A stretch of DNA of 54,702 nucleotides from Steroidobacteraceae bacterium (lineage in GTDB: Bacteria > Pseudomonadota > Gammaproteobacteria > Steroidobacterales > Steroidobacteraceae). The stretch is taken from assembly GCA_040899645.1 (NCBI GenBank), contig JBBEAB010000064.1, positions 14,164 to 68,865 on the forward strand, in the 5' to 3' direction. Made by a program: the position numbers and the translations under genes. Within the stretch, counting starts at the first letter, position 1; the number at the start of each line of letters is the position of its first letter. Shown here one piece after another: positions 46,298-48,817 of this stretch. Under the pieces are notes generated by a model, which saw nothing but the letters and a program-made list of their open reading frames with translations, ran no database searches and was not told the DNA's origin.

Positions 46298-48682
46298 CTA
46301 CTGGCTCCAGCGGATCTTGCCGCGCAATGCGGGCGGGAGGCCCTCGCAATGCTGCTCGAACCGCAGCTCGATCGCGGTCAGCGTCATTCCGACGTAGGTC
46401 ACGCTGTCTATCACGACCCAGGCGGTCAGGATATTGCAGCCGCGCCCTGCGGCGCCCCAGTCGAATCCGCCCTTCGTCGGGTTGTGGAAACCGATGCGTT
46501 GCAGATCGCCATAGTAGCCGGCTTCGAGGCGGGCCAGCGTGTTCATGCCCTGGAAGTTGCCGCCCCAGTTTGGATCCCCATCGATGAAAATACTCAGGCG
46601 CGCGTCGGTCGACGTCATCGTGATCAGGCTGTCGGCCGGCGTGTGAAGGTAGGTGCGGCCTTGGCCGATGAAATCCCCCGGCTCGCTTTCCAGGTAGACG
46701 TAGTTGCCGGTCGCTGGCGTCGCGCCGGGCGGCGGCTCCCATAGTCCCGGCGGCGGCGGCACGACCGGACCGGGCGGGGTCGTGTTGTCGTTGGCCTCCC
46801 AGTGGATCTCGCCGCGCAGCGCCGGCGCGCCGCCCTCGCAATGCTGCTCGAACCGCAGGTCGATCGCGGTCAGCGTCGTTCCGACGTAGGTCACGCTGTC
46901 GACCACGAACCAGCCAGTCAAGGTGTTGCAGCCGCGCCCCTCGCCGCCCCAGCTCAGGCCGCCCTTCACCGGGTTGTGGGAACCTGCGCGTTGCAGGTCA
47001 CCGTAATAGCCTGGCTCAAGGCGGCTCAGTATGTTCATGCCCTGGAATTCGGCCGCCCAATCTTCGTCTCCAAGGACTCCTATATTCAGGCGCGCCCCGT
47101 TCACAAACGTCGTGATCAGGCTGTCGGCCAGCGTATAAAGGTAGGTGCGGCCCTGGCCGATGAAATCCCCTGGCTGGCTTTCCAGATAGACGTAATTGCC
47201 GGCCGCGGGCGTCGCGCCGGGTGCCGGCTCCCACAGCCCTGGCGGCGGCGGCACCACCGGCCCGGGCGGGCTCGTCGGGTCATCGATGTCCCAGCGAATC
47301 GCACCATGCAGCGCGGGCGCACTGCCTTCGCAATGCTGCTCGAACCGCAGGTCGATCGCGACGAGCGTCGCTCCTTCGTAGGTCACGCTGTCGATCACGA
47401 ACCAGCCCGTCAGCGTATTGCAGCCACGCCCTTCGCCAAACCACATCAAGCCGCCCTTCACCGGGTTGTTGAACGGGAAACGTTGCAAGTCGCCGTAGTA
47501 GCCGACCTCGAGGCGGCTCAGCGTGTTCATGCCCAGGAAGCGACCGCTCCAGTTCTCATCGCCATTGATGTCAATGTTCAGGAGCGCGCCGTCCGGTTCC
47601 GCCGTGAACTGGGCGTCAGCCGGGGTGTAGAGATAGCTGCCGCCGTTGCCGATGAAGTCACCGGGTTGGCTCTCGAGGTAGACAAAATTACCGGTCGCGG
47701 GCGTCTCGCCAGGTGGCGGCTCCCACAGTCCTGGAGGCGGCGGCACCACCGGCCCAGGAGGGTTCGTCGTGTCGTTGACGTCCCAGTGAATCTCGCCGTG
47801 CAGCGCAGGTACGCCGCGCTCGCAATGCTGCGCAAACCGCAGGTCGATCGCGGTGAGCGTCTCGCCGCTGTAGGTCACGCGGTCGACCACAACCCAGCCA
47901 CTCAGGGAATTGCAGCCGCGCCCCTCGCCAAACCAGTCCAATCCGCCCTTCACCGGGTTATGGAACGGGAAGCGTTGCAAGTCGCCGTAGTAGCCGACCT
48001 CGAGGCGGCTCAGCATATGCATGCCCTGAAAGTCGCCGTTCCATTGCTCATCCCCCATCACGGAAACGGAGAGACGGTTTTGTGCCGCATTCACCGTGAG
48101 GACGGCGTTGGCCTCCGTATACCCATAGACCCCGCCGAATCCGACGAAGTCCCCTGGCTGACTCTCGAGATAGACGTAATTGCCGGTCGCCGGCGTGACG
48201 CCTGGCGCTGGCTCCCACAGGCCCGCAGGCGGAGGCACGACCGGACCGGGCGGGCTTGTCGGGTCATTGACGTCCCATTCGATCTCGCCGTGCAGCGCAG
48301 CCGCGTCGCCACCGCAATGCTGTTCGAAGCGAAGGTCGATCGATTCCAGCGTCGCGCCGTCGTACGTGACGCTGTCGATGATGAGCCAGCCGGTCAGGGT
48401 GTTGCAGCCGCGCCCCTCCCCCGACCAGTCCATTCCGCCTACGGCCGGGTCATGAAACCCGAAACGGGTGAGATTGGGGTAAGAACCGGGTTGCAGCTCG
48501 CTGTAGGTTTCAGGCAGCTGAAAGCTGGCCGACCAGGACTCGTCGCCATGGATTGCAATCGACAGTCGAGCGCCAACCGCGGTGACGGCAATCAGGGCAT
48601 CGGCATTCGAGTATTCGTACTCCTGGCCGGCACCGATGAAATCTCCGGCGTCGCTGCGCAGGCTGATGATCTGCTGGACTGT
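46298..48682. repeat. tandem DNA repeats (~495-500 bp x5, diverged) encoding the lipoprotein repeat domain
   Basis: Direct consequence of the five protein repeats. The copies are diverged at the nucleotide level, so this is an old duplication rather than an identical array. Confidence 0.75.
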
Positions 48683-48817
48683 CGGCGGCGGCGGCGGTGG
48701 CGGTGGTGGCGATGGCGGCCCCGCGACGGGCGGCCCGGATCCTCCGCCGCCGCCGCAAGCGGTGACGAGAAACAGTAGCGCGGTCGGCAGTACGCGCCCA
48801 AACTTGGAATTCGTCAT
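46298..48817 (-). CDS. lipoprotein with five tandem ~165-aa repeats of an uncharacterised Cys-containing domain separated by poly-Pro linkers
   Basis: Lipobox LLFLVTAC followed by a G/P-rich linker. The repeat unit is YVYLESQPGDFIG...GYYGDLQR...HNPVKGG..WxGEGRGCNTLTGW..DSVTY.G.TL.AIDLRFEQHC...ALHGEI.WD.ND.T.PPGPVVPPPPGLWEP.PG.TPATGN, five times. Spurious antisense ORFs mirror the periodicity. Confidence 0.8.
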   Translation of the reverse strand: MTNSKFGRVLPTALLFLVTACGGGGGSGPPVAGPPSPPPPPPPPPTVQQIISLRSDAGDFIGAGQEYEYSNADALIAVTAVGARLSIAIHGDESWSASFQLPETYSELQPGSYPNLTRFGFHDPAVGGMDWSGEGRGCNTLTGWLIIDSVTYDGATLESIDLRFEQHCGGDAAALHGEIEWDVNDPTSPPGPVVPPPAGLWEPAPGVTPATGNYVYLESQPGDFVGFGGVYGYTEANAVLTVNAAQNRLSVSVMGDEQWNGDFQGMHMLSRLEVGYYGDLQRFPFHNPVKGGLDWFGEGRGCNSLSGWVVVDRVTYSGETLTAIDLRFAQHCERGVPALHGEIHWDVNDTTNPPGPVVPPPPGLWEPPPGETPATGNFVYLESQPGDFIGNGGSYLYTPADAQFTAEPDGALLNIDINGDENWSGRFLGMNTLSRLEVGYYGDLQRFPFNNPVKGGLMWFGEGRGCNTLTGWFVIDSVTYEGATLVAIDLRFEQHCEGSAPALHGAIRWDIDDPTSPPGPVVPPPPGLWEPAPGATPAAGNYVYLESQPGDFIGQGRTYLYTLADSLITTFVNGARLNIGVLGDEDWAAEFQGMNILSRLEPGYYGDLQRAGSHNPVKGGLSWGGEGRGCNTLTGWFVVDSVTYVGTTLTAIDLRFEQHCEGGAPALRGEIHWEANDNTTPPGPVVPPPPGLWEPPPGATPATGNYVYLESEPGDFIGQGRTYLHTPADSLITMTSTDARLSIFIDGDPNWGGNFQGMNTLARLEAGYYGDLQRIGFHNPTKGGFDWGAAGRGCNILTAWVVIDSVTYVGMTLTAIELRFEQHCEGLPPALRGKIRWSQ

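Follow-up and report, generated by a model that had tools for sequence, protein, structure and literature searches.

A Steroidobacteraceae lipoprotein made of five tandem copies of an apparently undescribed domain, predicted to form beta-barrels connected by docked proline-rich arms

YceI, the bacterial lipocalin Blc, nitrobindin, hemophilin and HtaA are models of calycin-type carriers, and the known inhibitor lipoproteins, of the MliC/PliC and Inh/Omp19 types, are small beta-barrels that contain disulfides and are attached to the outer membrane. Calycin folds have been described in bacterial lipoproteins (PMC3367933). Here we analyse the gene for a protein of 839 amino acids, located at positions 46298-48817, on the minus strand, of a 54,702-nucleotide stretch of DNA (the window, i.e. 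the whole of the DNA that was analysed) from a Steroidobacteraceae metagenome-assembled genome (MAG). The protein carries a lipoprotein signal followed by five tandem copies of a Cys-containing domain that appears to define an undescribed family and is predicted with high confidence to form a ten-stranded beta-barrel, the copies being joined by proline-rich arms.

The limits of this open reading frame (ORF) were exactly those given by an earlier reading of the DNA alone (hereafter the sequence-only reading), which had described a lipoprotein made of five tandem, ~165-residue, Cys-containing repeats. This repeat array is real. Tandem Repeats Finder detected a 492-nucleotide period (4.3 copies, 77% matches, score 2126) over 46307-48430, and the motif GDF[IV]G recurs at residues 58, 222, 386, 550 and 714, i.e. 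with an exact period of 164 amino acids. All the motif blocks listed in the sequence-only reading were found in the alignment of the five units, which contains a single one-residue indel, in repeat 1, repeats 2-5 being in register. Identity between units spans 52-70%, with 52-62% to repeat 1; the mean column identity is 76% and 49 columns are invariant. Each repeat contributes two cysteines (in GRGC and QHC), to which that of the lipobox is added. The linker PPGPVVPPPPGLWEPxPG is present in four copies, unit 5 terminating at the stop codon.

From the N-terminus, and on the minus strand throughout, barrel domain 1 (residues 46-186, 48260..48682), a distinct first-position subtype without an LWxP arm as judged from the alignment and from cross-genome matches, is followed by Pro-rich arm 1 (residues 187-212, TSPPGPVVPPPAGLWEPAPGVTPATG, 48182..48259), barrel domain 2 (residues 213-350, 47768..48181), arm 2 (residues 351-376, 47690..47767), barrel domain 3 (residues 377-514, 47276..47689), arm 3 (residues 515-540, 47198..47275), barrel domain 4 (residues 541-678, 46784..47197), arm 4 (residues 679-704, 46706..46783) and barrel domain 5 (residues 705-839, 46301..46705), which is the C-terminal end of the protein. 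Arm 1 and domain 2 were delimited by sequence and alignment, domain 4 by these and by the two-domain model described below, arms 2 and 4 and domain 5 by sequence, and domain 3 and arm 3 by structural models.

The translation begins MTNSKFGRVLPTALLFLVTAC. Its signal peptide has an n-region with K5 and R8, then a hydrophobic core, and ends in a canonical lipobox, LVTA followed by C21, as found with the pattern [LVI][ASTVI][GAS]C; by sequence, it qualifies as a lipoprotein, i.e. as a substrate of Lgt and LspA. The signal peptide and lipobox (MTNSKFGRVLPTALLFLVTA followed by C, with Cys21 as the putative lipidated residue and Gly at +2) occupy 48755..48817, also on the minus strand. Directly after Cys21 come GGGGGS and a proline run, which form a Gly-rich, then poly-Pro tether (residues 22-45, GGGGGSGPPVAGPPSPPPPPPPPP, 48683..48754, minus strand), with a 3-nucleotide CGG-type repeat at 48683-48719 according to Tandem Repeats Finder. 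The signal peptide would be cleaved and Cys21 would anchor the protein by its lipid. Under the E. coli sorting rule, a Gly at +2 is not an Asp retention signal, and because of this Gly the protein would be directed to the outer membrane. The lipoprotein assignment made in the sequence-only reading is borne out both by the lipobox found here and by those of relatives, as 65 of the 79 family ORFs in the genomes sampled also have one.

We searched for known families that might contain the repeat. Pfam and NCBIfam gave only sub-threshold noise on the whole protein; when 51 diverse domains of the family were submitted singly to Pfam at E ≤ 5, no family recurred; phmmer and a family profile run against all Protein Data Bank (PDB) chain sequences returned nothing meaningful, and a literature search with the motif strings returned no paper. 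At the level of structure, the best Foldseek match in the PDB had an E-value not below 0.06, and a viral structure library yielded nothing. The sequence-only reading had called the domain unrecognised, a description that a match to a well-known family would have overturned; neither Pfam, NCBIfam, PDB sequences nor a close PDB fold provided one, and the repeat thus appears, on sequence grounds, to be an undescribed domain family.

The fold of the domain was predicted with AlphaFold2 (AF2), using repeat 3 as the modelled unit and an alignment of 51 sequences. The mean predicted local distance difference test score (pLDDT) was 96.9 and the predicted template modelling score (pTM) 0.90; DSSP assigned ten beta-strands and no helix. 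The beta-domain suggested in the sequence-only reading is thus predicted with high confidence to be a ten-stranded, up-and-down, all-beta barrel of ~137 amino acids. In a meander of this kind, Cys92, in the loop before strand 8, and Cys122, at the end of strand 9, share one end of the 8-9 hairpin (they are Cys468 and Cys498 in domain 3). Over 876 non-identical copies of the domain, both positions were Cys in 800, neither was Cys in 62 (30 of them Ser/Ser) and only 14 were mixed. This covariation and the shared hairpin end support a Cys92-Cys122 disulfide, one per domain, which would staple the GEGRGCN loop to the end of the RFEQHC strand. The covariation also supports an oxidising, extracytoplasmic location. 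Contacts predicted by mean-field direct coupling analysis of the 876 domains were dominated by indel artefacts, with only the Cys92-Cys122 pair recognisable, and were discarded.

A second AF2 model, spanning residues 352-704, comprised two repeats and their linker. It was also confident (mean pLDDT 94.3, pTM 0.84), and this held for the linker between the two barrels, i.e. arm 3, which is ordered with a pLDDT of 95-98. The model also contains two orphan arms, which behaved differently. The N-terminal one (arm 2), which lacks its preceding barrel, already reached a pLDDT of 97 from model residue 11, whereas the pLDDT of the C-terminal one (arm 4), which lacks its following barrel, fell to 85, 65, 69 and 48. 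This difference indicates that the Pro-rich arm is predicted to dock onto the barrel that comes after it, giving two barrels with a defined mutual orientation. In an alignment of 89 two-repeat segments, the P, P, L, W, P, P and G of the linker were each conserved to at least 90%, among them the P, L, W, P and G of arm 1. The poly-Pro linkers noted in the sequence-only reading are therefore present, four times, but the structural unit is an arm plus a barrel rather than a barrel plus a trailing linker. Docking of the arms on the following barrels would give the array a fair degree of rigidity, unlike beads strung loosely together. The tether would thus lead into five tandem modules, and from module 2 onward the near-invariant LWxP of the preceding arm would dock on the barrel.

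The family proved to be large. A word-indexed search with a five-repeat profile gave 303 proteins, all of them 'hypothetical' and nearly all without a precomputed Pfam domain. A scan of one genome per species gave 76 loci, found in Burkholderiales (Massilia, Pseudoduganella, Undibacterium, Variovorax, Ramlibacter, Rhodoferax and others), Steroidobacteraceae, Woeseiaceae, Cellvibrionaceae, Gemmatimonadota, Geobacter and other Desulfobacterota, Myxococcota, and MAGs labelled Nitrospirae and Chloroflexi. When a 51-sequence profile of the single domain was run with HMMER against 1.84 billion representatives at 50% identity, 5,787 proteins were retrieved at E ≤ 1e-3, 3,791 at 1e-10 and 1,024 at 1e-30. 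The 79 family ORFs of the 76 genome loci contain 2-7 copies of the domain; their lipobox, where present, is typically of the form ...AC followed by GGGG, and in most of them the final barrel ends a few residues from the stop codon. Among the best 150 representatives, the copy number was 2-8 and 107 proteins ended with a barrel. Copy number thus varies widely between species.

As a working definition, we took the family to consist of a ~137-residue domain with the blocks GDxIGxG, GYY, GRGCN and RFEQHC...LxGxIxW and a covarying Cys pair, present in 2-8 tandem copies with an LWxP arm before each; alignments and Cys covariation place MEX1994257.1, the protein of the window, within it. The additional regions of family members are extracellular modules only: K319L-like PKD, PKD, He_PIG, Big_5, Big_9, Big_13, CarboxypepD_reg, SdrD_B, InlB B-repeats, TSP3, SBBP, FG-GAP, subtilase S8, CWB2 (a Gram-positive cell-wall anchor), DUF4214, DUF5648 and an InhA-like MAM domain. 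The family is very widespread and was found only in extracytoplasmic contexts. The window itself contains a second, very divergent paralogue with a signal peptide, in an ORF (52855-54702, plus strand) that runs off its end. K319L-like PKD domains alternate there with two degenerate barrel copies (E-value of 3e-12 overall with the core hidden Markov model). The Cys pair is retained in the first of these copies but lost from the second, and Pfam detects the PKD domains alone. The strict profile therefore understates the breadth of the superfamily.

What might such a protein do? We favour the reading that it is a lipid-anchored, rigid array of five barrels serving as a multivalent extracellular binding device, and give it a little less than an even chance. 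The barrels would be exposed beyond the cytoplasm, probably at the cell surface, and the array would bind a ligand outside the cell, for which a polymer of repetitive structure, for instance a polysaccharide or a matrix, is the most plausible candidate. Surface exposure and ligand or carbohydrate binding, which the sequence-only reading had also proposed, are plausible in view of the disulfide covariation, the extracellular fusion partners and a weak fold resemblance to ligand-binding barrels. Two surfaces are candidates for binding. One consists of conserved polar loop residues (S9, G12-D13, G16, G18, R90-G91-C92-N93 and E119-Q120-C122; conservation reaches 87% for D13, 82% for E119, 89% for Q120 and 77% for R90), which, if the barrel is a simple ten-strand meander, are deduced to lie together at the end away from the N- and C-termini, and hence away from the linkers. 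The other is the conserved polar and aromatic face of strands 8-10, where a ladder on strand 9 (D115-R117-E119-H121) has R/H130 and H/R134 of strand 10 beside it, as well as W98, D102 and Y106 of strand 8; all of these alternate with core hydrophobics and should hence face outward. This second set could serve to hold a ligand or, alternatively, to dock the LWxP arm.

If the barrels were instead calycin-type carriers, each would enclose a small, mostly hydrophobic or chelate ligand (isoprenoid/quinone, lipid, haem or siderophore), and the array would act as a multi-site scavenger or store in the periplasm or at the surface. The Foldseek list points in this direction, since it consists mostly of lipocalins (TM-scores of 0.36-0.42). 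The size of the domain does so too, ten strands in ~137 residues being similar to fatty acid-binding protein (FABP)- and nitrobindin-like barrels. Calycin folds also occur among bacterial lipoproteins (PMC3367933). However, the positions that alternate as core-facing (V5, L7, W49, F53, L83, W85, F99, V101, I114, L116, F118, L129, I133 and W135) are nearly all bulky hydrophobics or Gly, which suggests a filled core and not a cavity. Furthermore, the most conserved of the polar residues are in loops or on the outer face, Pfam detected no lipocalin, YceI or haem-binding signature, and the fusions with adhesin-type modules fit binding at the surface better. We therefore regard a carrier array as unlikely.

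The predicted rigidity raises another possibility, that the protein is a structural stalk or spacer, a rod of arms and barrels without a ligand of its own, which fixes spacing within the envelope or sticks out from the surface and which, in multidomain relatives, holds other domains off the cell. The confident two-domain model with its ordered Pro-rich linker, a copy number of 2-8, as expected of a length-tuning module, and the co-occurrence of the domain with stalk-type repeats (PKD, Ig-like, InlB B-repeat) and with subtilase would all agree with this. Yet this protein and most family members contain no domain besides the barrels and finish with one of them, leaving a stalk nothing to hold out, and the polar loop conservation given above exceeds the need of a spacer. 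A purely structural role thus seems improbable. By analogy with MliC/PliC and Inh/Omp19, each barrel might also inhibit an exogenous enzyme, lysozyme or protease, and the array protect the envelope. The protein would share with these inhibitors their topology class and its being a lipoprotein, but it lacks their signature motifs and known inhibitors are single-domain, which makes this last role highly improbable.

Several points also weigh against a multivalent binding array. Both the binding role and the orientation of the barrels, at the surface rather than in the periplasm, are inferred; the +2 rule comes from E. coli and may not apply to the Steroidobacteraceae host; the clustering of the conserved loops at one end of the barrel is deduced from meander topology and strand parity rather than observed; the conserved residues of the outer face may do no more than receive the Pro-rich arm; and no conserved neighbouring gene points to a pathway. 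A bolder proposal can also be made. It is that the new domain superfamily, with at least 5,787 clusters at 50% identity in Pseudomonadota, Gemmatimonadota, Myxococcota, Desulfobacterota and some Gram-positives, in which disulfide-stapled barrels would be locked by docked LWxP arms, represents an unrecognised type of rigid multivalent surface receptor with a specific ligand (e.g. an environmental polysaccharide, a metal chelate, or a phage- or predator-related molecule), which would explain its commonness in soil and sediment bacteria. We consider this distinctly doubtful.

The diversity of the repeats, within the protein and between genomes, gives an indication of the age of the array. Eight of the nine best matches of repeat 1 in other genomes are first repeats, the remaining one being a second repeat; repeat 1 thus forms a class of positional orthologues shared between genomes. 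For repeats 2-5, identity to repeats of other genomes is 66-73%, as against 67-71% among themselves, and the closest full-length relative, itself a five-copy protein, is 53.5% identical end to end. Codons have diverged as well, 21-36% of the identical residues of the barrels being encoded by different codons. In the four linkers, of which 22-24 of the 26 residues are identical, this proportion is 25-50%, indicating that the linker peptide is maintained by selection rather than by recent gene conversion. With internal repeats as close to those of other genomes as to one another, and codons diverged at identical residues, the array is old, as the sequence-only reading had supposed.

The gene is present in GenBank as MEX1994257.1, 'hypothetical protein WD929_06310', retrieved by exact look-up from the Steroidobacteraceae MAG, and the protein is the sole member of its cluster at 90% identity. 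The frame is genuinely coding: the coding sequence is complete, with its stop codon at 46298-46300, and its guanine-plus-cytosine (GC) content at codon positions 1/2/3 (0.65/0.51/0.80) resembles that of the nearby obg, ispB, RtcB and CAP genes. An antisense ORF of 658 amino acids (46802-48778, plus strand) was rejected as a gene because its pattern (0.79/0.51/0.66) is the mirror image of that of the coding frame, as expected of a shadow ORF. Long antisense or off-frame shadow ORFs overlie the repeat gene at equivalent positions in ~70 loci, which makes them look 'conserved'; they result from the high GC content and the repeat structure and are not genes.

On the same strand, 77 nucleotides upstream of the start codon, lies a tRNA-Pro(CGG) gene (48895..48971; found by ARAGORN, and scored at 64.8 bits by the Rfam tRNA model). 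Downstream, 91 nucleotides from the stop codon, the sequence at 46160..46206 (minus strand) corresponds to the 3' half of a tRNA-Phe(GAA)-like gene, ~46 nucleotides from the anticodon loop to CCA, an identity that we presume from the likeness to E. coli tRNA-Phe. Neither ARAGORN nor Rfam (E ≤ 1) called this fragment as a tRNA, and it is unlike the adjacent tRNA-Pro and was not copied from it. It may be a scar of integration or rearrangement. A 63-residue ribbon-helix-helix ORF (RHH_3, antitoxin-like; 45967-46158, plus strand), embedded in a spurious ORF of 324 amino acids, ends one base before the fragment, and no partner toxin gene was seen. The segment from tRNA-Ile(GAT) to the tRNA-Phe fragment (41147-46158) contains unrelated genes, i.e. 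those for SPFH/Band 7, RtcB (an RNA ligase, with no RtcA seen nearby), metallo-beta-lactamase-fold and CAP/SCP-domain secreted proteins, and the ribbon-helix-helix ORF; upstream of this set, 38390-40690 encodes a PBP1B-type enzyme with a UB2H domain.

The sequence-only reading had linked the tRNAs to a horizontal origin of the gene. Two relatives whose Obg belongs to the same 90%-identity cluster retain rplU-rpmA-obg-rpsT-murJ-ribF-ileS-lspA-ispH and ispB, but have unrelated genes downstream of ispB and no repeat-family gene nearby, which places the repeat gene at a synteny break. If the gene were the cargo of a tRNA-targeting mobile element, the tRNA-Phe half would be the remaining scar of the attachment site. 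The CCA-ending fragment so close to the stop codon, the small RHH_3 ORF that abuts it, the synteny break and the singleton status of the protein agree with such an origin, as does the finding of homologues in Noviherbaspirillum, Alkanindiges and one more genome in regions rich in toxin-antitoxin, Fic or pseudogenes, where they are often fragmented. However, the GC content (0.63-0.68) and third-position GC content (0.80) of the gene equal those of its flanks, no integrase was found at the locus, the window contains neither a second copy or direct repeat of the fragment nor, according to ARAGORN, an intact tRNA-Phe, and the fragment is unlike the neighbouring tRNA-Pro. Moreover, only 1 of the 35 homologous loci scanned has an adjacent tRNA. 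These observations tell against a recent transfer. Plasmid carriage was limited to two distant tblastn matches. The idea of a tRNA-linked island was set aside, since neither a search for a second copy of the fragment nor Rfam, composition or the tRNA adjacency of homologous loci gave positive evidence of an element. The fragment and the synteny break speak for a horizontal origin, the case as a whole being weak; horizontal acquisition is possible but not demonstrated, and carriage by a tRNA-targeting element is doubtful.

All-against-all clustering of the flanking ORFs of the 76 loci and the window revealed no conserved neighbour, only the gene itself, shadow ORFs and sporadic generic genes, and the Pfam-annotated contexts of three homologues were unrelated variable regions. 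In three loci, L083 (Noviherbaspirillum saxi), L084 and L085 (Alkanindiges), the first and last of them from cultured isolates, only a truncated family gene or a series of successive ORFs derived from it was seen, among AbiE, HigB, ParE/Phd and Fic genes or gene fragments. Such genes may often decay, or the repeats may have disturbed the assemblies. A LytTR-type response regulator is present within ~1-4 kb of the family gene in 6 of the 76 loci (L006, L008, L041, L051, L063 and L064), which are spread over different orders; that of L051 immediately precedes the family gene on the same strand, and the locus of the window has none. This looks above chance and suggests LytTR as a possible regulator of family genes.

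What is new here is the domain family itself and the docked polyproline arm; the fold class and the general kind of protein, a repeat-built envelope lipoprotein, are ordinary. The finding alone reveals no new mechanism and solves no open problem. If it is right, one unannotated building block is common to thousands of envelope lipoproteins now called 'hypothetical', in lineages abundant in soil, groundwater and sediment (Steroidobacteraceae, Woeseiaceae, Massilia and other Burkholderiales, and Gemmatimonadota). The confident predicted structure, the defined disulfide and the conserved inter-domain lock would be enough to seed a new domain family entry, and one barrel of 137 amino acids would be a small, well-behaved target for ligand screening, available in cultured Massilia, Variovorax, Geobacter and Noviherbaspirillum.

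Among described systems, LpqH, the mycobacterial 19-kDa lipoprotein antigen (PDB 4xin and 7fds; PF05481), shows 5-9% sequence identity to the present domain. Pfam found PF05481 neither in the protein nor in the 51 family domains, the profile search of the PDB at E ≤ 10 did not return 4xin or 7fds, and hhalign, run with an approximate LpqH sequence, gave a probability of 0.2%. LpqH is also a single domain of ~110 residues, unlike the five copies found here, each with ten strands in ~137 residues and linked by docked Pro-rich arms. Lipocalins are eight-stranded meander barrels with a C-terminal alpha-helix and GxW-type signatures, and YceI-like proteins (PF04264) are extended eight-stranded barrels around an isoprenoid; MEX1994257.1 shows neither set of features. 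With respect to calycin-type barrels in general (lipocalins, YceI, nitrobindin/FABP-like), the domain differs by the absence of a C-terminal helix (DSSP) and of a Pfam signature and by a core that seems filled with hydrophobic residues, and these families are not known to form tandem arrays with Pro arms. In TbpB, LbpB, HpuA and NHBA-type surface lipoproteins, and in haemophores, the barrel is paired with a handle domain and a translocator or receptor gene is adjacent; in contrast to the Slam-dependent lipoproteins (TbpB/LbpB/HpuA), the present protein has no handle domain and no conserved neighbour, and neither a translocator (DUF560) nor a receptor gene was found among the window ORFs scanned. 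Finally, PKD, He_PIG, Big_x and InlB B-repeat arrays resemble it in being extracytoplasmic tandems of 2-8 small beta domains of variable copy number, and these modules are fused to the domain in relatives. The Pfam PKD and Big models do not match MEX1994257.1, and the predicted module differs from those of Ig-like repeat arrays by being a closed barrel rather than a sandwich, by its longer unit of 164 amino acids, by its disulfide staple and by its conserved docked polyproline arm.

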